From: Gallionella sp.
GTDB lineage: Bacteria > Pseudomonadota > Gammaproteobacteria > Burkholderiales > Gallionellaceae
Direction of reading: 5' to 3'
NCBI GenBank assembly: GCA_028689145.1
Contig: JAQTWT010000002.1
Location: 289,533-353,532 of the forward strand
DNA: 64,000 nucleotides
Both the position numbers and the translations under genes were made by a program. Positions 22,514 through 53,194 of this stretch are shown here, one piece after another (position 1 is the first letter of the stretch; every line of letters begins with the position of its first letter). The notes beneath the pieces were generated by a model that was not told the origin of the DNA, did not search any database, and worked only from the letters and a program-made list of their open reading frames with translations.

Positions 22514-22579
22514 GTAGGGGCGTATGGCAATACGCTCTTGGTTTGTGTAGGGGCGTATGGCAATACGCCCTTGGGTTGT
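22514..22579 (+). repeat. Two tandem 33-bp GTAG-tagged REP units
   Basis: GTAGGGGCGTATGGCAATACGC(T/C)CTTGG(T/G)TTGT at 22514 and 22547, each with the internal palindrome GCGTAT..ATACGC. Confidence 0.88.
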
Positions 22580-22598
22580 ATATCAGAAAAGGGAAACA

Positions 22599-23387
22599 AT
22601 GTCCGACATCCTCAACAAAATCCTCGCCGTCAAGGCGCAGGAAGTGGCAGCCGCCCTTGCCGCCAAGCCGCTCGCAGCGGTACGCGCCGAGGCGGAGCAG
22701 GCTGCCGCGCCGCGCGACTTTACCGGCGCGATCCGCGCCAAAATTGCCGCAGGTCAAGCCGCCGTGATCGCGGAAATCAAAAAGGCCAGCCCGAGCAAGG
22801 GCATACTGCGCGCCGATTTTCGCCCCGCTGAAATCGCTCTCAGCTACGCGCAGCATGGCGCGGCGTGCCTGTCAGTGCTGACCGACGAACAGTTTTTTCA
22901 GGGCAGCGCGGAATACCTTAAGCAGGCGCGTGCCGCCTGCGCGCTGCCGGTGTTGCGCAAGGATTTCATGGTGGACGAATACCAGATATATCAGGCGCGC
23001 GCGATGGGTGCGGACGCTATCCTGCTGATCGCCGCCGCGCTGGATGTGAAGCAAATGCAGGCATTCGAAACGCTGGCGCGCAGCCTCAATATGGCGGTGC
23101 TGGTGGAAGTACATAACGGCGAAGAGCTGGATGCCGCGCTGCAACTCTCTACGCCGCTGCTCGGCGTGAACAACCGCAACCTGCGCACCTTTGAGGTGAG
23201 CCTGCAAACCACGCTGGACTTGCTGCCGCGCATTCCGGATGAACGCATCGTCGTCACCGAAAGCGGTATTCTCAAGGCGGAGGATGTCCGGCTGATGCGC
23301 GGCAACCGGGTGAACGCCTTTCTGGTTGGCGAAGCGTTTATGCGCGCGGACGATCCGGGTGCGGAGCTGGCGAAAGTGTTTGGATAA
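22599..23387 (+). CDS. trpC: Indole-3-glycerol phosphate synthase
   Basis: [43 protein letters not shown]; start set at ATG 22599. Confidence 0.97.
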
Positions 23388-23411
23388 ATAATTCGTTCGG
23401 GCTGCTGCTAA

Positions 23412-23621
23412 ATGTCGCACTCCATGAATACACAAGACCCCGCCAATAAACCCGCAGGGTGCAACGACTGCATCCACTACTTTATTACCCATGTCGCCAC
23501 ATTCAGATACGGCTGCCGAGCTTTGGATTTCAAGAGCAAACGGCAACCGCTTCTGGATGTCATCGAGGCATCCGGGCAACGGTGCCAGTTCTTCCGGGAA
23601 AAAGGGCGGGGGCGGAAATAG
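23412..23621 (+). CDS. Small four-cysteine protein of unknown function
   Basis: CNDC-x-HYFITH...YGCRALDFKS...EASGQRCQFF; follows trpC closely; the start may be ATG 23424. Confidence 0.7.
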   Translation: MSHSMNTQDPANKPAGCNDCIHYFITHVATFRYGCRALDFKSKRQPLLDVIEASGQRCQFFREKGRGRK

Positions 23622-23645
23622 TCCGTTAAGTGCCAATAACGGACT
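23620..23645. repeat. Short palindrome at the left edge of the AT-rich island (unit 1)
   Basis: AGTCCGTTA-agtgccaa-TAACGGACT, a perfect 9-bp stem with a GTGCCA loop. Confidence 0.75.
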
Positions 23646-23744
23646 TACAACTTGATGCTCCATTCTCGGTCTGTCTGTTAGGATAGGTATATACTTATCC
23701 ATTATTGAATATCCCTTGAGCCACTCAATTAACTTCTATCATCT

Positions 23745-24491
23745 GTGACAACATTTGCCGATCTATTCTCATCACTGAAAGATGAGCTTGCAGCGAGATA
23801 CAGGAGTCCATTTTGGGGAACTGCTCTTATCGTGCTCACTGCATATCACTGGAGAATCATCGTATTCTTCTTTACAGAGAAGCAAAATGCAAAAGATACA
23901 ATCGCATTTATTGAATCAAACGTGTCGTTTGTGAGCATCATGACATCCATTGCAATTGCGTTGTGTTATGTCATCGTATTTCCCTGGTTTGAGCTTGGAC
24001 TTGCGCGCGCTATGTCATTTGGTAAACGTGCCCGTAATGACTTCTATACGGAAGAGCGTGAGTGGGAGATTGGGCGGCGTAAATTGATCGCTCAGGAGCA
24101 AGCCAATATAATTGAAATGGAACTCAAAAATAGGAGCGACCAATCAAAGTTGGCAGATATTCAGTTAGTTAAGAGCTACCAGAATATACTTCAAGGAGAA
24201 AACTTCGGAAGGTGGCTGAATGATATTAAAAATGGTCCCATTCACAACAACCTACAAAACACAATAAACAACTACCTGAACATGGTGGATTCAATTGAAG
24301 GCAAATTCATCAATTCAGAAATCGAGTTAGCTCACGCCAACTTTGTGAGTGATCTGTCCACTTTGGTATCTGCTCTTAGTGATGGAAAGCTGGATGAAAC
24401 TCGACGAGCAGATATTATAAAATTTGGCAGCAAAGCCCTTGCATCTCAACAAGAGTACCGCAAAAAAGTTCGTGAGTTGCTAGGAGTTTAA
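23745..24491 (+). CDS. Hypothetical membrane protein (2 N-terminal TM + coiled coil)
   Basis: 248-aa ORF with GTG start, RSPFWG...HWR before TM1, second TM ~60-83, charged helical tail; AT-richer than its flanks. Confidence 0.8.
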   Translation: MTTFADLFSSLKDELAARYRSPFWGTALIVLTAYHWRIIVFFFTEKQNAKDTIAFIESNVSFVSIMTSIAIALCYVIVFPWFELGLARAMSFGKRARNDFYTEEREWEIGRRKLIAQEQANIIEMELKNRSDQSKLADIQLVKSYQNILQGENFGRWLNDIKNGPIHNNLQNTINNYLNMVDSIEGKFINSEIELAHANFVSDLSTLVSALSDGKLDETRRADIIKFGSKALASQQEYRKKVRELLGV

Positions 24492-24515
24492 AAAGGCAAC
24501 ATTGGGCATAAGTGT

Positions 24516-24541
24516 AACGGTCTCCTTTGTGCCAGAGGACT
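24516..24541. repeat. Degenerate palindrome between island ORFs (unit 2)
   Basis: AACGGTCTCCTTTGTGCCAGAGGACT: shares the GTGCCA loop and GGACT end with unit 1, and GGTCTCCTTYG with unit 3. Confidence 0.55.
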
Positions 24542-24644
24542 TTAGAAATAAAGTTTAGCTTGGCATGAATTCCTTATTTCTAAACGAGCAAGCCCATGTA
24601 TTTTTATAGTATAGAATTGTACGCACTCCATAATTAATTGTCTG

Positions 24645-25160
24645 TTGAGAGCATCAACGATGAACGATACCAGCATCCCTATACCGAAAGAATCGGGCTC
24701 AGATGGTCACCAAGTCAAGGCCGACGTGAGTGGCGAGCTTGTTCAGGCACAACCGTTGACGCACATGGTACAAGCGATTACGGGACTGGCTGCATCCAAT
24801 GCTCGTTTCTTTGGCGGGGAGGTAGCATCTACTCTCATTGCTGGGGCAACATCTCAGATGTCTGCCGAGCTAGCTCAGACTAAGCAAGAATTGGGGGCTC
24901 TTCGCCAAAAATATGAGGTGCTATCAAACAGTTTTGCCGATGAACGGATTCAAAAAGCCATACTAGCCGAGCGCATTGATTCATTCCGTTCTTCCCGCCA
25001 TCTCAAGAACATCGGAATATCGGTAGGTACTTTGCTGCTAGGGATCGGCGCTCAATTGATTAAAATTGATTACGTTCCACATGGTATTGCCTCAATTGTA
25101 ATTGGCGCGCTTCTTGTACTTTTAAGTTGGCTATCCGTACCGAAGGGAGCTGACAAATGA
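24645..25160 (+). CDS. Hypothetical protein (coiled coil + 2 C-terminal TM)
   Basis: 171-aa ORF (start may be ATG 24660); heptad-like LAQTKQELGALRQKYEVL, two hydrophobic helices at the C-terminus; ATGA-coupled to the next ORF. Confidence 0.78.
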   Translation: MRASTMNDTSIPIPKESGSDGHQVKADVSGELVQAQPLTHMVQAITGLAASNARFFGGEVASTLIAGATSQMSAELAQTKQELGALRQKYEVLSNSFADERIQKAILAERIDSFRSSRHLKNIGISVGTLLLGIGAQLIKIDYVPHGIASIVIGALLVLLSWLSVPKGADK

Positions 25161-25573
25161 TTGTTTCTGACCTTGCGGAATTGTTACTGTATCCGGTTGC
25201 CGACCGAGGTGTACCAAATTCAGAAAGAGTCCCAATTCTTGTTCGAGAAGCTACAGATATGGGTCGTTATGGGTTAATGATAGGCTTTTCCGGCCCAAAT
25301 AGATTTGCTATGCCGTTCCAAGACAATCTTTTTTGGTTCGGTGATGGTGTTGTTAACGCTGGAGATTGGATTCTCGTCTTTACAGGAAGCGGCAACCCAA
25401 AAATAGACGATTGGACAACTCCCCCGGGTAGCAAAGTGTATTCAGTTCACTGGGGGAGGCCAAATACAATGTTTGCTAATTCTCAAATTGTTCCCATTTT
25501 GTTTCGTACCGACTCAGCTATTGTCGGTCAGCCCCAAGGCGACTTACCACAGTTAAAGATTGCAAATACCTAG
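25157..25573 (+). CDS. Hypothetical beta-rich protein (possible lamin-tail-like Ig fold)
   Basis: 138 aa; DRGVPNSERV, FWFGDGVVNAGDWILVFTGSG, VHWG. The fold guess is from motif resemblance only. Confidence 0.75.
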   Translation: MIVSDLAELLLYPVADRGVPNSERVPILVREATDMGRYGLMIGFSGPNRFAMPFQDNLFWFGDGVVNAGDWILVFTGSGNPKIDDWTTPPGSKVYSVHWGRPNTMFANSQIVPILFRTDSAIVGQPQGDLPQLKIANT

Positions 25574-25575
25574 CC

Positions 25576-25611
25576 TGTAGGATGCGGTTCGCAAGCTCAC
25601 CGCGTCCTACA
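25576..25611. repeat. GTAG-tagged REP, compact palindrome
   Basis: TGTAGGATGCGGTTCGCAAGCTCACCGCGTCCTACA; core GGTTCGCAAGCTCACC also present in the 47629 REPIN. Confidence 0.8.
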
Positions 25612-25625
25612 AGGTTGGAAGCGAG

Positions 25626-25652
25626 AAGGTCTCCTTCGGGTCGTTGTCAGCC
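25626..25652. repeat. Island right-edge motif (unit 3)
   Basis: AAGGTCTCCTTCGGGTCGTTGTCAGCC; GGTCTCCTTYG is directly repeated from unit 2. Confidence 0.45.
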
Positions 25653-25786
25653 ATCGTCAATACCCGCTATTGGTGAAGCTGGCATTACCGGTCAGGCAAT
25701 GAGCCAGGCAAGCAATGCGCATAAATTCTGCCCGTCAACTGTTGGCAAACTCTTCAAGGTAGAATTGCGGCCACATCAATCATGAG

Positions 25787-26242
25787 ATGAGCGCGGTTAT
25801 GGACTACCATGAACTAATCGCAATTACGCTTGCCGAGGCGCGCAGCGGGCTTGCCGAGGGCGGCGTTCCGGTAGGTGCGGCGTTATTTGGCGCGGATGGC
25901 ACTTTGTTGGGGCGTGGGCACAACCGTCGCGTGCAGGACGGCGATCCTTCGATACATGGCGAAACTGATGCGTTTCGCAAGGCCGGACGCCAAAAAAACT
26001 ATCGCGACAAAATCCTGGTTACCACACTTGCGCCCTGCTGGTATTGCAGTGGCCTGATACGCCAATTCAATATCGGTACCGTGGTCGTCGGGGAGTCGGT
26101 AAATTTTTCGGGTGGGATCGATTGGTTGCGCCAGAATGGTGTCAATGTTATTGACCTTAATTCGGCAGAGTGCATCGATATGATGGCCGACTTCATCCGT
26201 GATTATCCCGATTTATGGCATGAAGATATTGGGGAAGCGTGA
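25787..26242 (+). CDS. Nucleoside/cytosine deaminase (zinc-dependent CDA fold, FCY1-like)
   Basis: EGGVPVGA, HGETDA (HxE) and PCWYC (PCxxC) zinc motifs, WHEDIG C-terminus. Confidence 0.92.
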   Translation: MSAVMDYHELIAITLAEARSGLAEGGVPVGAALFGADGTLLGRGHNRRVQDGDPSIHGETDAFRKAGRQKNYRDKILVTTLAPCWYCSGLIRQFNIGTVVVGESVNFSGGIDWLRQNGVNVIDLNSAECIDMMADFIRDYPDLWHEDIGEA

Positions 26243-27993
26243 TGCTGCGATTAGCCAATAACCTGCTTGTGCTGGTCGCAATGTTGATTTGCGCGACATC
26301 CGCATCGGCACTCGAACAGATTACCCTGCAACTGAAGTGGACGCACGCCTTCCAGTTCGCCGGATATTATGCCGCGCAAGAGCAGGGGTATTACCGGGAT
26401 GCAGGCTTGGAAGTTAATATTGTTGAGGCCGCCCCCCATACTGAGCCAGTACGCAGCGTGCTGGAAGGTAAAGCGCAGTATGGCGTGGGAACCAGCAGCC
26501 TGTTACTGGAACGTGCTGCAGGAAAACCGGTGGTTGTGTTGGCCGTAGTGTTTCAGCAATCCCCTTACGAGATTTATGCTGCACCGCATATCCAGAGTCT
26601 GAATCAGTTGATTGGCAAACGCATCATGCTGGAGCCGCAATCGGATGAATTGCTGGCTTATCTGAAAAAAGAGGGTATTCCCATCGACCGTGTCCGGCAA
26701 TTACCGCACAGTTTCGATGCGACCGGGCTGATGACCGGCAAGACCGACGCGATTTCCGGGTATGTATCCAACGAACCGTTCTACTTTAAACAGGCGCATT
26801 ATCCCTACCAGACTTTTAGCCCCCGTTCGGCGGGAATCGATTTTTACGGCGACAATCTGTTTACCTCGACGCAGGAGTTAGAGTCCAATCCAAAGCGTGT
26901 TAAAGCCTTTCGGGCCGCCAGTTTGCGCGGCTGGCAATATGCAAAAGAACATCGCGACGAAGTGATTGCGCTGATTCTTGCCAAGTATTCAACGCAACAT
27001 AGCCGCGAATATTTGCGTTTTGAATCGGACCAGATGATTCCGTTATTGCAGCCCAATCTGATCGAGATCGGCTACATGAATCCGAATCGCTGGCGTGATA
27101 TAGCCAACACCTACGCGGATATTGGACATTTGCCGCACGATTTTTCTTTGGCGGGATTTATGTACGACGCGAGCGAACCGGACTTGACCTGGTTCTATCG
27201 CAGTCTGCTGGCTGCCCTGCTAGTCATAGCAGTCATCTCGTCGGTAACACTCTATATTTACCGCATTAACCGCAAGTTGCTCGCCAGCGAAAAGCATAAT
27301 CTGGTTATTCAGGAAAGTCTCAGGCAGTCCAATGAAGCTATCGAACGGTCACTGGCTGAACAACACCGCTTCATGGATATGCTTACCCATGAGCTTAAAA
27401 CTCCTATCTCAGTGGTACGTATGGCGCTGGGGGTTATGAAGGCGGAAGGGCCGTTCAAACGACATGCCGATCAGGCTTTGGAGGATATGAGCGGGATTGT
27501 CGAGCGATGCCGGCAGCTGGATCAGCTGGAACAGCGGAAGCTGACACCTTATGTGCAACCTTGCCACATCGAACAGATACTTGCTGAATTGCGCTCAAGC
27601 AGCGGTGCGCCGGATCGAATATCCATTACGAGTGCATCCCTGCCGGAGCTCAATACCGATGTACAATTATTGCGTATCATTCTCGGCAACCTGATCGGCA
27701 ATGCCATCAAATATTCACTGCCGGAATCCCTGATCGAGATTTATGCCGAGCCAGACCGTCGCTGTGACATACCGGGTGTCAGTGTGACTGTAATGAATCA
27801 GCCGGGAGTGGCGGGGCTGCCGGATTCCGCCCAGGTGTTTGGCAAGTATTACCGCAGTCCGGGTGCGCACAAACAAACCGGTTCCGGTCTCGGCCTGTAT
27901 TTGGTGCACAGTTTCACGGAATTACTGGGCGGACAGGTTGCATATGATGTCGTACAGGAAAAAGTAAGATTCACCCTATGGATACCCTGCTGA
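26239..27993 (+). CDS. Sensor histidine kinase with NMT1/THI5-like substrate-binding domain
   Basis: LQLKWTHAFQFAGYYAA and DFYGDNLF solute-binding motifs, one TM, HELKTP H-box, NLIGNAIKY and GSGLGL boxes. Confidence 0.9.
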   Translation: MMLRLANNLLVLVAMLICATSASALEQITLQLKWTHAFQFAGYYAAQEQGYYRDAGLEVNIVEAAPHTEPVRSVLEGKAQYGVGTSSLLLERAAGKPVVVLAVVFQQSPYEIYAAPHIQSLNQLIGKRIMLEPQSDELLAYLKKEGIPIDRVRQLPHSFDATGLMTGKTDAISGYVSNEPFYFKQAHYPYQTFSPRSAGIDFYGDNLFTSTQELESNPKRVKAFRAASLRGWQYAKEHRDEVIALILAKYSTQHSREYLRFESDQMIPLLQPNLIEIGYMNPNRWRDIANTYADIGHLPHDFSLAGFMYDASEPDLTWFYRSLLAALLVIAVISSVTLYIYRINRKLLASEKHNLVIQESLRQSNEAIERSLAEQHRFMDMLTHELKTPISVVRMALGVMKAEGPFKRHADQALEDMSGIVERCRQLDQLEQRKLTPYVQPCHIEQILAELRSSSGAPDRISITSASLPELNTDVQLLRIILGNLIGNAIKYSLPESLIEIYAEPDRRCDIPGVSVTVMNQPGVAGLPDSAQVFGKYYRSPGAHKQTGSGLGLYLVHSFTELLGGQVAYDVVQEKVRFTLWIPC

Positions 27994-28667
27994 ATATCAT
28001 CGTGGTGGAAGACCACGATGTGCTGCGCGAAGTCACCGTAGCGGCCTTGCGCGGCGAAGGTCACCATGTGACCGGCGTGGACTGCGCCGAAGCGCTGGCA
28101 GATATGGCGAATGTCATGCATATTGATCTGATGGTGATCGACCTCAATTTGCCGGGCGAGGACGGTATCAGCCTGACCCGGCGTATCCGCCAGACCCAGC
28201 CGGATGTCGGTATCATCATGGTCACCGCGCGCGGACAGCTTGCAGAAAAAATGCAGGGGTACGAGAGCGGTGCCGATATTTATCTTACCAAGCCGACTTC
28301 GGTAGAAGAACTCAGCGCGGCGATTCAGGCATTGTCCCGCCGCCTCAAGCCGGTTTCCCATGTTACATCCGCCCTCAAACTTGACCTTAACAAGCTTTCA
28401 CTGTCTGGTGAGCAGGGTGAGGTCAGTCTCACTGCCCACGAAGCCGCGCTGTTAGCCGCTTTTGTTCGCGCGCCGGGACATCGGCTGGAAAATTGGCAAA
28501 TCATCGCCCTGATGGGCAAGGGTGAAGCCGACTACAGCAAAACCAGTTTGGAGGTGCAAATTTCCCGGATACGCAAGAAGCTGGTGCAGGCCGGTGTTGC
28601 CGGGCAACCCATCAAATCTATCCGCCAGTTCGGTTATCAGTTATGTGTGGGTGTGAGGGTGATGTAG
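27978..28667 (+). CDS. OmpR-family response regulator
   Basis: VVEDH, IDLNLPGEDG (phospho-Asp), GADIYLTKP, winged-helix LEVQISRIRKKL...IRQFGY. Confidence 0.93.
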   Translation: MDTLLNIIVVEDHDVLREVTVAALRGEGHHVTGVDCAEALADMANVMHIDLMVIDLNLPGEDGISLTRRIRQTQPDVGIIMVTARGQLAEKMQGYESGADIYLTKPTSVEELSAAIQALSRRLKPVSHVTSALKLDLNKLSLSGEQGEVSLTAHEAALLAAFVRAPGHRLENWQIIALMGKGEADYSKTSLEVQISRIRKKLVQAGVAGQPIKSIRQFGYQLCVGVRVM

Positions 28668-28988
28668 TCGGAGTTTAAATTCGTGGGAGGTTGCAGCAAC
28701 CCACTTTCAATTGCCGCCAAGCGGCATCGTAGGCTTCTGTAAGGTTTCTTTTTCCTGTTTTGATACCCTGTAAAAATTGGCACGTAATGCATTTTATTTA
28801 CGTATTTCATGTATTTTTTATCACGGAATATGTGAGATGCCTATGCGATAGGCAAAACATATGCGAATAACAATTCGAACTGAATCTGACATCAGGTTTT
28901 GTCAGCCTAAAAATTGCTATTTAGCCCACTATATAGCGCCGAAAAATTTCAATTCGGCAATCACAGATTAAAAAATTAAGAGGATCGC

Positions 28989-31067
28989 ATGCGCAATAAC
29001 CAGCCTGTCACCAATCGCGAATATGAACTGCGCGAAGGTTCAAACATCATTTCACGTACCGACAATAAAGGCATTATCACCGATTGCAACGACGAGTTTG
29101 TCGAGGCATCCGGATTTTCCCGCGAGGAGCTGATCGGCAAGCCGCATAACATCGTGCGCCACCCGGATATGCCGGAGGAAGCGTTCCGCGATGTCTGGGA
29201 TACGCTGAAGAGCGGGCGCCCTTGGGGCGGGTTGGTCAAAAACCGGCGCAAGAATGGCGATCACTACTGGGTGCGCGCTACCGCCACGCCCTTGCCGGAT
29301 GGCAGCGGCTATACCTCGGTGCGCAGCAAACCGGCACGTTCGGAGACGCAGGGTGCGGAAGCGCTCTACCAGCGCATGCGCAACGGGGAAAATATCCGTC
29401 TGGACGAGGGCTATATTCGGACGGCGGGTGTCATGAATTTCTTTAAAAAGATTAAAATTTCGCAACGCCTGATGCTGATGGTGGTTTTGCCCGTGGTGCT
29501 TGCCATCGCCCTGTTGAGCAATTGCTTATGGGCATTGCATGCCAGCAACGATGCAATGAAATCCGTTTACGAAGACCGTCTCGTCACTATGGACAGGTTG
29601 GGCAGGATCAATGATCTTAACCAGATGAGTCTGATCGATCTGCTGCTAGCATCGAGAACGGGAGCCGATAAGAGCACTGTCGGCGAACTATTGGGCAATG
29701 TCAAAAAGAACAAGGCCGACATCGATAAAACCTGGTCGGACATTATGGCGACACATCTTAATGAAGATGAAAAACCATTGGCTGCCGATCATGCCGCCAA
29801 GCGCGATGCCATGTGGGCACTCATTTTGAAAGCGGCGGATTTGATTGCCGCGGGCGATGTGGCGCGGGCCAATGATTTGTTTGACCATGAGTTGAAAAAT
29901 ATCAGGGACGAACAGGAAGAGTCCATCGATATACTCAATAACTATCAGGTAGCTTCGGCTGAAGCATCATATGGAAAGGGTGTGGAGCGATACAACCTCA
30001 ACCTGCAACTTGGTTTGGGGTTGGGTACTCTGGGTATTCTGATTACGCTGACGATCGCCGGGTTCAGCATGCGTCATATCAGCAGCAGCTTGCGCGAGGC
30101 CAGCGAGGCGGCAACGGCCATTGCCAACGGCGATCTTACCCGCCCCATGCCGCGTGCCGCACATGATGAAATTGGCGAACTGGTGGCCAAAATGTCCATT
30201 ATGCGCAATGCACTGCACGAAATGATCGCCTCGATGCGCGAAAATGTGGATGTGCTGAACCAGTCGGCTGTCGAGTTGTCGGCTTCAGCAAACAACAGCG
30301 CCCGCGCTTCGGAAAGCCAATCGGATGCGGCCTCCAGTATGGCTGCTGCGGTAGAGCAAATGTCCGTTTCTATCGACCATGTGGAAGAAGGTGCGCGTGA
30401 AACCCATGAGGTTACCCAATCTTCTGGAACCAGATCAGACGAAGGTGCGCGCATTATTCATGCCGCAGCTGAAGAAATGGGGCGTATCGCCGAGGCAGTC
30501 AAATCAACAGCAGGCACCATTCGCGAACTGGAAGGATTCTCCGAGCAGATTTCCAGTATTGCCGGTGTTATCAAGGATATTGCGGATCAAACCAACCTGC
30601 TCGCCTTGAATGCAGCCATTGAGGCGGCACGCGCCGGCGAACAGGGACGGGGTTTCGCCGTGGTGGCTGATGAGGTGCGCAAACTGGCAGAGCGTACCGC
30701 CAATTCCACCAAGGAAATTACCGGGATGGTCGTCATGATCCGTGAAGGAACGCAGCGCGCAGCGCAGGAAATGGAGGCGGGTGTCGTTCGTGTCAGTGAT
30801 GGTGTGAAACTGGCCCAACAGGCTGGCGAGTCGATGACGGGTATTCGCCAGGGTGCCGAGCAAACCAGCCGGGCGGTAAATGAAATTTCCAATGCGCTCA
30901 AGGAACAGACGATCGCGGCACGCGAGATCGCCCAACGGGTCGAGCAGATCGCACAGGGTTCCGAGTTAAATAGCGCGTCGGCGGCACTCACGGCCACCTC
31001 GGCGCAGCAAATGGAAAGTTTGGCCCGGCAGCTGCAAAAACTGTCCACGCGCTTCAGGATCGCGTAA
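28989..31067 (+). CDS. Aer-like PAS methyl-accepting chemotaxis protein
   Basis: PAS with [21 protein letters not shown]; two TMs with a periplasmic four-helix region; HAMP; [35 protein letters not shown]. Confidence 0.95.
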
Positions 31068-31101
31068 TGGTAATGGAGCGTATGAAAGAGGGGGTTTCAT
31101 C

Positions 31102-31518
31102 ATGCCGTTCTCGAAAAGGCTTAGTGTCGGCAATAGCATGTTGGGTGCCACACACCGGACTCTGAACAACAAAATTAACGTAATAGTTGGCTCGATTGCG
31201 GCCAGGGACGTTTCTGCTCTCTCTGATGCATTCGATTCATTTGAGAAATGTCTGAATACCTATTTCCTCGTTGAGGAGCAGTTTGCACGCGCGGTTAACT
31301 TCGACTTTACCCGGCATAAATTAACACACCAGAATTTGTTAAAGGATTTCAGGTTTATCAAAGAGGAGCTGCTGAATAAAAACGGCATATGGTCTGAGCA
31401 TGAGGAAAAATGCTATATCCAGGCCCTGAAGAATAGTCTTGTTCGATATGTCGAGGTGGATATCAAGCCGTTAAGGCTGGTATGTGATACTTGTCTCGAC
31501 GATTTCAAAATAAGCTGA
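31102..31518 (+). CDS. Hemerythrin-like protein with degenerate metal ligands
   Basis: SVGN..L..TH, YF..EE, H...H spacing matches bacteriohemerythrin; two His positions appear as Tyr. Confidence 0.65.
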   Translation: MPFSKRLSVGNSMLGATHRTLNNKINVIVGSIAARDVSALSDAFDSFEKCLNTYFLVEEQFARAVNFDFTRHKLTHQNLLKDFRFIKEELLNKNGIWSEHEEKCYIQALKNSLVRYVEVDIKPLRLVCDTCLDDFKIS

Positions 31519-31554
31519 ATTCCCGGCGCAGATAACAGGCGAAGGTGAGCGAAA

Positions 31555-32751
31555 ATGATCGTAAAGATACCCGTAAAACAACTCAGGGTCGGCATGTACC
31601 TCCACGACCTTAATTGCAGCTGGATAGATCATCCGTTTGCGCTCAACCGTTTTATGATCGACGATGCCGCCACTTTAAAAAAGATCCATGCTGCCGGTGT
31701 CGCGGAAGTCTATATCGACACCAAGCTCGGTTTGGGTGTCGATTTCTCGGAAGCCGAAGCGGAGGAAGAGGAAGAAATTGAAGCTCCAGTATCCGAGCCG
31801 ACCATTCTTGTCAAACGTTCCCCCGCCGAGGAATTCGAATATGCCAAGAATCTGTACTCCAATGCCAACCAGTTGATGCAGGACATGATGAAAGATGTCC
31901 GTATGGGCAAGCAAATCAAGGTGGAGCAATGCGAGCCGATGGTCGACAATATTCTCGATTCGATATTCAGCGCCCCCTCCGCGCTGCTGCCGCTGGCCCA
32001 AATCAAGACCAGCAACGAATACACCTTCCAGCACTCGGTTTCGGTCGCCGCGCTGGCGGTCGCGTTCGGGCGGGTACTGGAAATGCCGCGCACCGAGATC
32101 AAGGAGCTGGCGTTGGGCGGTTTGCTGCATGATGTGGGCAAGGCCATCGTGCCGGGGAATATATTGAACAAACCGGGCAAACTGGACGATGCGGAATTTG
32201 TCGTGATGAAGAGCCATGCGGCGAACACCGCCGACCTGCTCAAGGGGCTAGAGGGGATCAGCGAGGTCGCGTTTAATGCCGCCGCGCAGCACCACGAACG
32301 TTTTGACGGCTCCGGTTACCCGAAGGGGCTGAAAGGCGAGCAGATCAGCCAGCACGGCCAGATGCTCGCCATCGTGGATGTCTATGATGCGATCACCTCG
32401 ATCCGCGTCTATCACAAGGGCATGTCGCCGACCGAGGCATTAAGGAAAATGTACGAATGGAGCGGCAGCCACTTTAATCCCCGGCTGGTGCAGGCGTTCA
32501 TCAAAGGGATCGGTATCTATCCGGCGGGTTCGCTGGTGCGCATGGAGAGCGACAAGCTGGGTATCGTGCGGGAAGTTGTGCCGGACAAGTTGTTGCAGCC
32601 AGTCGTGCAATATATCTACGATTGCAAAAAAATGAGCTATATCCCGGCCGAGACGGTGAATCTTTCTGTCTCGGAGGACAAGATAAAGTCCCACGAGTCT
32701 TTCGAGAAGTGGGGCATCGATCAGGCTAAATGGGCTATGAGGCTCATCTGA
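31555..32751 (+). CDS. HD-GYP cyclic di-GMP phosphodiesterase with DUF3391-like N-terminus
   Basis: LRVGMYLHDL..W..HPF N-terminus, HSVSV, LLHDVGK, HHERFDGSGYP, YDAITS.R.YHK. Confidence 0.93.
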   Translation: MIVKIPVKQLRVGMYLHDLNCSWIDHPFALNRFMIDDAATLKKIHAAGVAEVYIDTKLGLGVDFSEAEAEEEEEIEAPVSEPTILVKRSPAEEFEYAKNLYSNANQLMQDMMKDVRMGKQIKVEQCEPMVDNILDSIFSAPSALLPLAQIKTSNEYTFQHSVSVAALAVAFGRVLEMPRTEIKELALGGLLHDVGKAIVPGNILNKPGKLDDAEFVVMKSHAANTADLLKGLEGISEVAFNAAAQHHERFDGSGYPKGLKGEQISQHGQMLAIVDVYDAITSIRVYHKGMSPTEALRKMYEWSGSHFNPRLVQAFIKGIGIYPAGSLVRMESDKLGIVREVVPDKLLQPVVQYIYDCKKMSYIPAETVNLSVSEDKIKSHESFEKWGIDQAKWAMRLI

Positions 32752-32809: not shown

Positions 32810-33226
32810 CTACTCTTGAATTACTTCAAAGTCGTGTGTAATTTTGGCGGTCGCGCCGAGCATAATGGAGGCAGAGCAGTATTTTTCAGCCGACAATTTG
32901 ATGGCTTTTTCAACAGCCTCCGGTTTGATGTCCTTGCCGGTCACGACAAAGTGCATGTGGATTTTGGTGAATACCTTGGGATCGGTTTCGGCGCGTTCGG
33001 CATCCAGTTCCACATAGCAATCCGAGACAGCTTGGCGGCTTTTTTTCAGGATGCCGATTACATCAAAACTGGTGCAGCCTCCGGCACCGAGCAGCAACAT
33101 TTCCATCGGGCGCGGGCCGAGATTGCGCCCGCCTGCAGCCGGTGAACCATCCATCAATACCGCGTGACCACTTTCTGTTTCGCCCAGAAACGAGACTTGC
33201 TCCACCCATTTGACGCGCGCTTTCAT
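32810..33226 (-). CDS. OsmC family protein (YhfA-like)
   Basis: GPRPMEMLLLGAGGCT and SAEKYCSAS with two conserved Cys. Confidence 0.92.
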   Translation of the reverse strand: MKARVKWVEQVSFLGETESGHAVLMDGSPAAGGRNLGPRPMEMLLLGAGGCTSFDVIGILKKSRQAVSDCYVELDAERAETDPKVFTKIHMHFVVTGKDIKPEAVEKAIKLSAEKYCSASIMLGATAKITHDFEVIQE

Positions 33227-33242
33227 GTTGTTCCTTTCTTGC

Positions 33243-34025
33243 TTAAGTATTAGAGATTGCTAATCTTACCCGATACCATAGCAATCCGATCATTTCATGG
33301 ACAAAGATTTTGCTGTCATGCAACGATCCGGCGTTGGGCAGGAAAGCGAGCAGGTCGATCTGATAGTGCGTGCTGAAAGCGGTCGGCGCTTCGATTACCT
33401 CGAATCCGGCGCGGCGGAATACTTCAGCGGAGCGGGGCATGTGCCAAGCGTGGGTAATGAGATAAATCTTTTTGATGCCGGCCTTTTGCAAAGTCTGAAA
33501 TGAGTAGTGCGCATTTTCAAAGGTGTTGTCAGACGCATCCTCGATCCAGCGTACCGGTACCCGAAAGTCCTGTTCCAGTGACGAGCGCATTTGCTGTGCT
33601 TCAGATGTGCTGTTGCCGAACGGTTTTCCACCGGTTACCAGAATTGGTTTTCCTGTTTCACGCTGGAGCTTGGCTCCATAGCGCAGGCGAATCAGGGTAG
33701 CTTCACCAATAGTATCGGCGCCTGCATATTCCGGTGCATGGAAGTACGTTCCACCACCGAGTATCACGATTGCATCGGCAATTTTAGATTGTCCGATTTG
33801 ATGCTGGTTTCCCAGCGCTGCAGTGCGCCCTTCAAGCAAGTGCAGCGCGCCTTCGGAAAAATAAGGCGTGGAAGTAATCCACAGTAAAGTGAAAGCAACA
33901 AACAGTAACGGCTTGGCAAATTTGCTGCGGCGATACAGCAAGAGGATACCCAGCGCGAGCACCAGCAGCATGTTGAGCGGCGGCAGCAGGATGGCGGCGA
34001 TGAAATTGGTAATGAACCAGGACAT
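33243..34025 (-). CDS. YdcF/DUF218 (ElyC/SanA-like) envelope protein
   Basis: IVILGGG, VTGG, SEA..M, EDASDNTFENA, LITHAWHMPRS, HEMIG. Confidence 0.9.
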   Translation of the reverse strand: MSWFITNFIAAILLPPLNMLLVLALGILLLYRRSKFAKPLLFVAFTLLWITSTPYFSEGALHLLEGRTAALGNQHQIGQSKIADAIVILGGGTYFHAPEYAGADTIGEATLIRLRYGAKLQRETGKPILVTGGKPFGNSTSEAQQMRSSLEQDFRVPVRWIEDASDNTFENAHYSFQTLQKAGIKKIYLITHAWHMPRSAEVFRRAGFEVIEAPTAFSTHYQIDLLAFLPNAGSLHDSKIFVHEMIGLLWYRVRLAISNT

Positions 34026-52312: not shown

Positions 52313-53194
52313 CTATTCAAATTCTTTGAAAAAGTCATGATTGATATCAAAAACAACTCTTGGAGTCAGCCCGAATTTAAGCTTTTCGAACATCGATACC
52401 AACTTTTCACCATCAACCAATTCTATGGGGGGTACGCCGTCCCGAACGGCCTCATTTTTTGCATCTTGGGTAAACCGTCCGGTAGTGATGATTATTCCCT
52501 TATCGGCTCTCCCCGCCATCGCTCCCCTAAAGTCCCTTACCTTGTCAGTAGAAACAACCTCCTTGTATCTCTTCGACTGAAAAAGGACTTTGAAACTCAT
52601 CAGTGGGTTCAGTTCCAAAACTCCATATCCATCAATTCCACCGTCTCCCGATTTCCCTGTAACTTTTACATGCGAAAACCCCGATTCACGAAGCAGCCGT
52701 TGGCATAACCGCTCAAATCCTTCTGGTGGAAGCTGCTTCAAAATTTCAAGAACCTGCACGCGATAGTTCTCGTCTTCTACTTTTTCTTCTATCTCTTCAT
52801 CTATTCCAAATGATATATGTGTGTCTGTTGAGGACGCTACTTTCTTCTTGTCAAAGATGCCATGCGTCTTCGAAAAAAATTCGCTAGGCTTCTCAAGGTC
52901 AATTAAATCTAAGTAATTTGGCTTCAATATCCAAACTCCACGTTTAGTGGAATCAAGCACACCACCTTTAACCAAATAGAACCTGGCCCACGCAATTCGG
53001 TTTTTTACCGTTGAGCCACCATTTTTATTTCTTAACTCAAGCTCTTCTTCAGAAATGTTATAGCGCTCAATAATCAGATCCGTAACTTCAGCAGGATTAC
53101 CTGAGCCACCCAATTCCCGAAGAATCTCAATAATTGGAACAAAGTACTTTGTGAAATCGGGGCCTTTTATATGTTTTAGTGCTTTCTTTGCCAT
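52313..53194 (-). CDS. mrr: Mrr-family (type IV-like) restriction endonuclease
   Basis: Mrr N-terminal wHTH (LRELGGSG...NRIAWAR.YL.K.G), catalytic GDGGIDG...FQSKRY, VRDFRG, LVDGEKL; AT-rich. Confidence 0.92.
   Translation of the reverse strand: MAKKALKHIKGPDFTKYFVPIIEILRELGGSGNPAEVTDLIIERYNISEEELELRNKNGGSTVKNRIAWARFYLVKGGVLDSTKRGVWILKPNYLDLIDLEKPSEFFSKTHGIFDKKKVASSTDTHISFGIDEEIEEKVEDENYRVQVLEILKQLPPEGFERLCQRLLRESGFSHVKVTGKSGDGGIDGYGVLELNPLMSFKVLFQSKRYKEVVSTDKVRDFRGAMAGRADKGIIITTGRFTQDAKNEAVRDGVPPIELVDGEKLVSMFEKLKFGLTPRVVFDINHDFFKEFE

Follow-up and report, generated by a model that had tools for sequence, protein, structure and literature searches.

We analysed a 64,000-nt stretch of the Gallionella sp. 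genome (contig JAQTWT010000002.1, positions 289,533 to 353,532; hereafter "the window"), and in particular an AT-rich block of about 2 kb that follows trpC and a small gene termed here orf69, and that carries three co-oriented genes (ORF-A, ORF-B and ORF-C) accompanied by short palindromic motifs. We regard this block, with a probability of roughly 0.6, as an ordinary small islet acquired in an intergenic hot spot and made up of two unrelated modules, ORF-A on the one hand and the ORF-B/ORF-C pair (hereafter B-C) on the other, for which no dedicated capture enzyme is needed. An earlier sequence-only reading had proposed a cassette-like array in which the motifs serve as recombination sites of a capture system distinct from integrons. 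The sequences on which it was based, namely palindrome 1, GGTCTCCTTTGTGCCAGAGGACT, a long inverted repeat, GGTCTCCTTCGGGTCG and the three co-oriented ORFs, are all present at their positions, and the proposal is partly supported by our results: modular accessory cargo at a variable site is supported, a capture system based on the motifs is not. Comparisons were made with fetched loci (L-numbers, 1.65 Mb in all) and with assembled contigs of three metagenome runs (X1, X2 and X3), of which X1 holds this very strain (100% identity). The features of the locus are as follows.

22557..23387, plus strand: trpC (indole-3-glycerol phosphate synthase; Pfam IGPS, E 3e-94), the conserved left anchor
23412..23621, plus strand: orf69, encoding a small Cys-rich protein (CxxC...C...C), the final conserved gene before the variable segment
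23620..23645, no strand: palindrome 1, AGTCCGTTA-AGTGCCAA-TAACGGACT, with perfect 9-bp arms and the 8-nt loop AGTGCCAA
23630..24506, plus strand: ORF-A unit, defined by local nucleotide alignment to L177, from -115 of the start to +15 past the stop
23745..24491, plus strand: ORF-A, 248 aa, GTG start, 42 homologue clusters
24519..24541, no strand: palindrome 2, GGTCTCCTTTGTGCCAGAGGACT, a weak imperfect inverted repeat in the probable 3' flank of ORF-A
24607..24657, plus strand: promoter-proximal stretch upstream of ORF-B, resembling 23679-23728 upstream of ORF-A
24660..25160, plus strand: ORF-B, 166 aa, with a coiled-coil region and two C-terminal hydrophobic segments
25157..25573, plus strand: ORF-C, 138 aa, its start overlapping the ORF-B stop (ATGA)
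25574..25614, no strand: hairpin resembling repetitive extragenic palindromic (REP) elements, with a 13-bp stem, directly 3' of the ORF-C stop; the inverted repeat spans 25569-25618
25628..25643, no strand: unit 3, GGTCTCCTTCGGGTCG, in the conserved upstream region of the deaminase gene
25787..32751, plus strand: rest of the fill, with genes for a deaminase, kinase, regulator, chemoreceptor, 138-aa protein and HD-GYP-type protein (Pfam)
32810..34025, minus strand: osmC-like and DUF218 genes (Pfam OsmC, DUF218), the conserved right anchor, convergent with orf69

The host is a betaproteobacterium of the Gallionella/Sideroxydans type, whose closest relative by TrpC is an uncultured Gallionella metagenome-assembled genome (92% amino-acid identity). 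The genes are arranged in the order proA (minus strand), trpC, orf69 (69 aa, Cys-rich) and then the block. The order proA-trpC is maintained across Gallionellaceae relatives, and orf69 follows trpC in L002, L094, L095, L103 and L117; its family comprises 32 homologue clusters with 21 invariant columns, and wherever the source of a homologue is named, the name is Gallionella or Gallionellales. In three of the relatives (L002, L094 and L117) the osmC-like and DUF218 genes, encoding proteins 90-96% identical, lie 40-78 nt from orf69, and the spacer between orf69 and osmC holds one GC-rich hairpin. As the same pair is located here at 32810-34025, the region from 23.6 to 32.8 kb (~9.2 kb) represents a lineage-specific fill, and the AT-rich block constitutes its left edge, between the convergent trpC-orf69 and osmC-DUF218 units. 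The same junction is filled otherwise in two further relatives (2.9 kb in L095 and 1.5 kb in L103) with genes that differ from each other and from those found here, each fill comprising one multi-pass membrane protein and small ORFs, and in more distant Gallionellaceae the interval from trpC to osmC has yet another content. To the right of the block, the fill in the window encodes a cytidine/dCMP-type deaminase (25787-26242), an NMT1-domain histidine kinase, an OmpR-type response regulator, a PAS-4HB-HAMP chemoreceptor, an orphan protein of 138 aa and an HD-GYP-type protein (DUF3391 + HD_5); none of these genes is present between orf69 and osmC in L002, L094, L117, L095 or L103. The description of the block as AT-richer than its surroundings is borne out by its GC content of 43.8% (0.40-0.48 locally), compared with 59.4% (0.56-0.65) in the core on the left and 52.7% in the rest of the fill.

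Two further observations concern the left anchor and the spacer. The invariant residues of the orf69 family follow the pattern CxxC..H..FRYGC..C, and in most of 80 metagenome loci its members occur in contexts other than trpC. In L095 (3133-6044) and L103 (2257-3794) the fill begins within the orf69/osmC terminator hairpin, of which the left arm, GCGCAGGG.TGC, is retained while the loop and the right arm are replaced; as the spacer is mostly hairpin, a start inside it is expected by chance.

The locus resembles the integrase-less defence/accessory hot spots found between core genes in E. coli (PMC10121019) and P. aeruginosa (PMC10250203) in that it is bounded by core genes, with no fill in some relatives and other fills in further ones, and in that the fill has no mobility gene and includes low-GC cargo whose homologues are found in defence islands elsewhere. 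It is unlike them in that the fill is far smaller and contains mostly signalling genes (kinase, regulator, chemoreceptor, HD-GYP), with no recognised defence system, the three genes of the block not being known defence genes. The absence of an integrase, stated already from the sequence, was confirmed inasmuch as no recombinase was found in a non-exhaustive scan that took in the genes at 22.5-34 kb, with the whole 9.2-kb fill, and 20 additional ORFs of medium length in the window. There is no tRNA gene in the 64-kb window, and neither the block nor ORF-A is bounded by terminal inverted or direct repeats beyond those expected by chance. The block would represent foreign DNA at the left edge of the fill, placed in what is in the relatives a short spacer between two convergent conserved units.

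We found no ORF-A homologue near a B-C homologue, or the reverse, at any fetched locus, and therefore consider the two as independent modules; in this respect the earlier proposal that the block is accessory DNA composed of separable units is upheld, as each is found elsewhere without the other. Homologues of ORF-A (42 clusters, 245-254 aa) have a common MTTFAD start. The AlphaFold2 model of ORF-A (pLDDT, i.e. the predicted local distance difference test, 86) is all-helical, with two N-terminal hydrophobic helices, a long helix at 62-148 (~85 residues) and a C-terminal bundle; two membrane helices are predicted, and a fold search of the PDB with this model returned no match. Scans of ORF-A, ORF-B, ORF-C and orf69 against Pfam, PADLOC, PHROGs and NCBIfam revealed a single weak similarity, that of residues 3-82 of ORF-A to phrog_4780, a PHROG of unknown function (E 1e-6), and PADLOC 2.0 gave no match to any of the four at E up to 1. 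At the nucleotide level, the similarity to L177 that defines the ORF-A unit includes the conservation of its first 16 nt, and after an 11-nt gap the 3' flank (24518-24550) is again collinear with L177 (P = 0.012); judging from this alignment, the unit probably continues, in a degenerate form, to about 24550. According to our interpretation, ORF-A would be a stand-alone gene for a membrane protein, which brought along its own upstream region of 115 nt.

Outside the window, ORF-A was found in four distinct contexts. Its homologue adjoins GmrSD and an integrase in L091/92, and GajA/GajB-like genes and an integrase in L093, while in Ferrigenium kumadai (L090, AP019536.1, 8001-8753) a lone homologue lies within the nif cluster, with no defence neighbour. 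The latter has a GC content of 46% in a locus of 61% and is placed between a draG-type ADP-ribosylglycohydrolase gene on one side and convergent rotamase/nifZ/nifW on the other. In L091 (and also in L092) the homologue is bracketed by 82-nt inverted repeats (1095-1176 and 2147-2228), which are 94% complementary and 970 nt apart, with the integrase 6 kb off, and which include 21 nt identical to the 3' end of the Ferrigenium tRNA-Arg(ACG) genes.

ORF-B and ORF-C constitute a translationally coupled operon. ORF-B lies immediately 5' of ORF-C, with the 4-nt overlap kept, in every genome or metagenome locus having upstream DNA; among the viral loci of ORF-C, an ORF-B match was found in L180 and L181 and none in L179 and L182. 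The 230 representative relatives of ORF-B are nearly all 160-175 aa in length, and its coiled-coil centre and hydrophobic segments, as judged by eye from the sequence, would correspond to a coiled coil with a hydrophobic C-terminal hairpin. For ORF-C there are 102 homologue clusters, and none of them bears a Pfam domain or a name that points to a function. Its AlphaFold2 model (pLDDT 89, predicted TM-score (pTM) 0.80) of this small, putatively cytoplasmic protein is an all-beta sandwich, for which the best PDB matches, and the sole consistent ones, are the tail domains of lamins A/B (E 3.5e-3, TM 0.48-0.56), while comparison with BFVD gave nothing meaningful. We take this weak likeness to the immunoglobulin (Ig) fold of the lamin tail as a resemblance of predicted fold and not as a family assignment.

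The B-C pair is present in at least nine other loci, which represent seven distinct contexts. Its neighbours include HicAB (L085), McrBC together with an Eco57I-type gene (L087), an integrase (L083), YoeB/YefM (L174) and a pPIWI-associated nuclease (L178), and in L088 the pair adjoins a cluster of tRNA-Gly/Cys/Leu genes, ahead of a PD-T7-3-like gene, dCTP deaminases and an AlpA-type helix-turn-helix protein. For both modules the survey of neighbours is anecdotal and has no background rate. In 13 of 14 contexts the GC content of ORF-A or B-C is below that of the host locus. The nucleotide homology of B-C across contexts ends at -18/-23 and +3 of the coding region, beyond which the flanks are unrelated, and the hairpins downstream of B-C homologues differ in every context. 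Viral sequences contain little of either module: among 2.9 million viral contigs there are four weak matches to B-C and none to ORF-A, and neither ORF-A nor ORF-C was found in isolated phages or plasmids. To judge from these comparisons, the distribution of the two modules is that of chromosomal island cargo, and both would move between genomes as such, in islands linked to tRNA genes or integrases and in the vicinity of defence or toxin-antitoxin genes.

The region of the long hairpin after ORF-C (25560-25660) folds at -38.8 kcal/mol (z -3.5), forming a stable imperfect GC-rich palindrome, and the segment 25577-25618 matches six contigs with unrelated flanks in the sediment metagenome X3, where its word depth reaches ~80; because of these unrelated flanks we consider it a true repeat family, and its designation as REP in the sequence-only reading is thereby corroborated. 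REP elements are typically present in many extragenic copies per genome, each an imperfect GC-rich palindrome that forms a stable stem-loop. Like REP elements and bacterial interspersed mosaic elements (BIMEs), the hairpin is an imperfect GC-rich palindrome just past a stop codon and, in a related community, is found in several contexts that are unrelated to each other; unlike them, it is single-copy both in the window and in X1 (one contig), with no RAYT-type gene (REP-associated tyrosine transposase) seen, and the 1.65 Mb of related loci contain no second one. The family seems to belong to another genome, and its single occurrence in the metagenome of this very strain suggests that the hairpin was imported along with B-C, whose transcript it probably ends or stabilises. 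Neither the two palindromes nor unit 3 belongs to the REP/BIME class.

Unit 3 is resident DNA. X3 and X2 contigs match the window rightwards from ~25625-25637 and differ from it leftwards, and since they share unit 3 while differing to its left, we assign it to the flank of the deaminase gene. The X3 differences bracket the entire block, with limits at 23635 on the left and ~25625-25637 on the right, and these limits fit a single import as well as anything else.

This brings us to the alternative that survives best, although we still consider it unlikely, namely that the block is one piece of a larger island or prophage, now decayed, and arrived from one donor in one event, so that ORF-A and B-C are neighbours by descent. 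Besides the X3 limits at the two ends, it would account for the low GC content, which is uniform across the block, and for the REP at the right end, which is foreign to this genome's own metagenome. It would also agree with the similarity of the stretches upstream of ORF-A and ORF-B: the best alignment between the first and the second intergenic region (23679-23728 vs 24607-24657; P = 0.008 for the same strand, P = 0.04 for either strand) is of the kind expected for the promoter type of one donor, and the likeness could reflect a shared promoter or operator type or a common provenance. However, no locus with both ORF-A and B-C was found among those fetched, the viral, phage and plasmid sequences offer only the four weak B-C matches mentioned above, and the site has no hallmark of an island (integrase, tRNA, direct repeats).

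In the form in which it survives, the proposal of the sequence-only reading invokes a short site that has a GTGCCA core and lies in a hairpin or next to one. A recombinase or an HUH-type nuclease, with its gene located elsewhere, would cut and rejoin this site, and ORF-A, perhaps also B-C, would have entered as separate units, singly. We consider it improbable, more so than the import of a single piece, but the left junction of the block provides evidence in its favor that deserves to be presented in full. Palindrome 1 overlaps the TAG stop of orf69 and spans the point at which the orf69 flank gives way to the ORF-A unit; as RNA it folds at -15.2 kcal/mol (z -2.6 vs shuffles). Over orf69 and as far as 23635, i.e. 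through the left arm and GTGCCA, a 587-nt contig from X3 has 91% identity to the window, and it is unrelated beyond this point. Conversely, in L177, which has a different genomic context, the homology to the window starts at 23630, the G of the same GTGCCA. The differences from X3 and L177 do break in the palindrome 1 loop, which counts in favor of the proposal, as does the right limit of the X3 difference just past the REP (25625-25637); unit 3 is resident, and palindrome 2 is most likely part of the ORF-A flank.

Several observations weigh against the simple islet that we favor. Two homology breakpoints (23630 and 23635/6) coincide in the loop of palindrome 1, and it is unlikely that the perfect 9-nt pairing of arms derived from different partners is a coincidence. 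At 24529, on the boundary between ORF-A and B-C, GTGCCA with GGACTT after it is found once more. The breakpoints were seen in two low-coverage Logan contigs (depth 4-5), with 30 nt readable past each break, and the search for motifs in this genome covered the 64-kb window, so copies may be present elsewhere in it. As to function, no known defence gene adjoins the block in the window and there is no PADLOC match, and the role proposed below is therefore a guess from context alone. The coincidence at palindrome 1 can be read in two ways. If a single join by 6-nt microhomology united an X3-like recipient with an L177-like donor, the complementarity of the arms is a coincidence with a probability of ~1e-4; if two independent breaks fell in one 8-nt loop, the probability is ~0.004 for positions random over the 123-nt spacer, and higher if the loop is prone to breakage.

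The remaining evidence speaks against a capture system. Neither X3 nor L177 shows a complete site, as each is without the other arm of palindrome 1, and one microhomology join accounts for both breakpoints as a single event. Palindrome 1 has no second copy in the window or in the 1.65 Mb of fetched loci, and palindrome 2 and unit 3 have no further copy there either, so that, as far as these data reach, the prediction that the motifs would recur around other variable genes fails. In IMG/VR there are six matches to GTGCCAMWAACGGACTT, which is at or below a rough estimate of chance, and none has ORF-A nearby. A site-specific integrative element would have its core directly repeated at both of its ends and present also at the empty site, and would depend on a cognate recombinase in the element or the genome. 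GTGCCA is found at 23630, at 24529 and in the X3 flank, but the similarity between the sequences upstream and downstream of ORF-A does not exceed that of shuffled sequences in any of five contexts (P 0.38-0.84), and a true empty site was not recovered for this lineage. The left limit of ORF-A homology varies with context (-115, -95, and -18 to -25), and B-C homologues lack any common flank. No recombinase was detected in the genes and ORFs scanned. The assembled contigs of the runs contained no joints in the block indicative of circular or excised forms, and a search for RNA runs gave none.

The claim that the motifs are related to each other did not withstand comparison with a null model in which the three intergenic regions were dinucleotide-shuffled 1500 times. 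A 9-mer common to some pair of regions was present in 21% of shuffles, a 6-mer and a 5-mer within 8 nt of each other in 59%, and both types of shared words in 13%, i.e. sharing of the kind observed is at the level of chance. Unbiased local alignment of the intergenic regions (P = 0.62 for regions 1-3 and P = 0.13 for regions 2-3) does not pick out the palindromes, selecting in regions 1 and 2 the promoter-proximal stretch instead. Nor are the second and third motifs convincing hairpins. The arms of palindrome 2 are 7 nt long and include one mismatch and two G-T pairs, and its region is not more stably folded than shuffled sequence (z -1.4); the predicted structure is a different one, in which GUGCCA pairs with UGGCAU (24561-24566) around an AT hairpin. 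Its region is collinear with L177, as described above, and we therefore assign it most likely to the 3' flank of ORF-A rather than to a junction site. Unit 3 folds no better than shuffles (z -0.06). With two of the three motifs thus belonging to flanks, no other copies of any of them and unrelated flanks around B-C, their interpretation as recombination sites is not supported.

The motifs were also compared with known classes of elements. Integron attC sites are ~57-141 nt long and form an imperfect palindrome that opens at its 5' end with R'' (RYYYAAC) and closes at its 3' end with R' (GTTRRRY); an integron array has intI and attI adjacent or, in the case of CALINs (clusters of attC sites lacking integrases), at least two attC sites in a row, and the cassettes are usually promoterless single ORFs that retain their attC wherever they are found. 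The block resembles integron cassettes in possessing small co-oriented genes with short imperfect palindromes between them and no adjacent recombinase. However, its palindromes are only 23-26 nt long (16-26 nt when all units are considered), and the core words are either lacking or misordered, which agrees with the original statement that they do not fit attC: GTTAAGT of palindrome 1, read from the sequence, fits GTTRRRY but lies in the 5' half with no preceding RYYYAAC, and the reverse strand exhibits the same wrong order. Here there is no attI, intI or array, no attC-like site, and no recombinase domain among the scanned genes. Also unlike integron cassettes, ORF-A is preceded by a conserved upstream sequence of 115 nt, B-C is an operon of two genes, and homologues elsewhere are not accompanied by the sites.

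Intrinsic terminators consist of a GC-rich stem-loop followed by a run of T. The positions of palindrome 1 after the orf69 stop and of the REP after the ORF-C stop are reminiscent of such Rho-independent terminators, and in the relatives with an empty site one terminator-like GC-rich hairpin serves the convergent orf69 and osmC. Nevertheless, a T run follows none of the four motifs (palindromes 1 and 2, REP and unit 3), the tails being ACTTACAAC, TTTAGAAAT and GGTTGGAAG, and a consensus terminator scan called none of them. Rfam, searched at E up to 1 over 22-34 kb, yielded nothing relevant and matched no motif. A possible sigma-54 element, formed by TGGCAC on the minus strand of palindrome 1, was rejected by eye because there is no TTGC at the right spacing.

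The least probable alternative is a regulatory one, in which a single regulator would bind the GTGCCA/TGGCAT half-sites and the promoter-proximal stretch common to the two modules, and would control ORF-A together with B-C. In its favor, GTGCCA at 24529 pairs with TGGCAT at 24561, L177 carries TGGCAT 18 nt ahead of its GTGCCA, the stretches upstream of ORF-A and ORF-B are similar, and L177 conserves the first 16 nt of the ORF-A unit. Against it, the block holds no regulator gene, half-sites of 5-6 nt are common by chance, and B-C homologues elsewhere have unrelated upstream regions.

In our preferred interpretation of the block as an ordinary islet, the DNA probably arrived by recombination of incoming molecules, either through flanking homology or through a short microhomology such as GTGCCA at the left junction. 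Palindrome 1 would then be a junction hairpin, with the left arm contributed by the orf69 flank and the right arm by the ORF-A unit, palindrome 2 would be the 3' flank of ORF-A, and unit 3 would be resident sequence upstream of the deaminase gene. That a crossover at GTGCCA or in the hairpin loop is used by a trans-acting enzyme appears doubtful to us. A capture system independent of integrons would, if real, matter greatly, and the evidence does not carry that claim; the two homology breakpoints in a single hairpin loop are nonetheless a coincidence worth a look where the complete genome and raw reads are available.

As regards function, the block is a candidate for defence cargo by context: homologues of its genes often adjoin defence, toxin-antitoxin or integrase genes, but here there is neither a PADLOC match nor a defence neighbour. 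With low confidence, and from context alone, we suggest phage defence or another conflict function at the membrane as the likeliest role of ORF-A and B-C, which is a reasonable guess; within the pair, ORF-C might act as a sensor or regulator and ORF-B as a membrane effector, again with low confidence. B-C is analogous to two-gene membrane-effector defence modules in that it is coupled and would combine one membrane-anchored and one soluble small protein, and in its patchy distribution, low GC content and proximity to defence or toxin-antitoxin genes. Unlike such modules, it has no PADLOC sequence or profile match, and the analogy is one of function alone. We know of no defence sensor with a lamin-tail-like sandwich fold, and the term lamin-tail-fold defence protein is not used among the top results of a literature search. 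The bolder combination, in which a hairpin site with a GTGCCA core serves the integrase-less insertion of single modules, palindrome 1 is its hybrid remnant and B-C is an uncatalogued two-gene anti-phage system acting at the membrane, strikes us as rather implausible. As a very small hot spot flanked by convergent genes, the locus does provide a clean case from an uncultured lineage of iron oxidisers, and it draws attention to two compact families devoid of functional annotation, ORF-A (~40 clusters) and ORF-B/ORF-C (~100-230 clusters), whose distribution marks both as candidates for conflict or defence functions that would be cheap to test in a laboratory host.

A few other features of the window were recorded. 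Two ORFs, one of 67 aa (25582-25785) and one of 276 aa on the minus strand (22872-23702), were treated as spurious because they overlap the REP and trpC, respectively. Within the 9.2-kb fill, a second low-GC dip (0.405) is found at 28600-29000, between the genes of the response regulator and the PAS chemoreceptor, and the 138-aa ORF at 31102-31518, between the chemoreceptor and the HD-GYP-type gene, matches no Pfam family at E 0.001. The proA-trpC spacer (22515-22573) contains a palindromic unit of 26 nt, TAGGGGCGTATGGCAATACGCCCTTG, in two tandem copies that are spaced by 33 nt and extend into the annotated start region of trpC; the unit has no further copies in the window (four strand-wise matches vs 0.03 expected) and gave rise to a spurious weak match to an Rfam miRNA. 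Finally, a gene for an Mrr-type restriction endonuclease (Mrr_N + Mrr_cat; 52313-53194, minus strand) adjoins genes of the cobalamin pathway and may be another small acquired islet.

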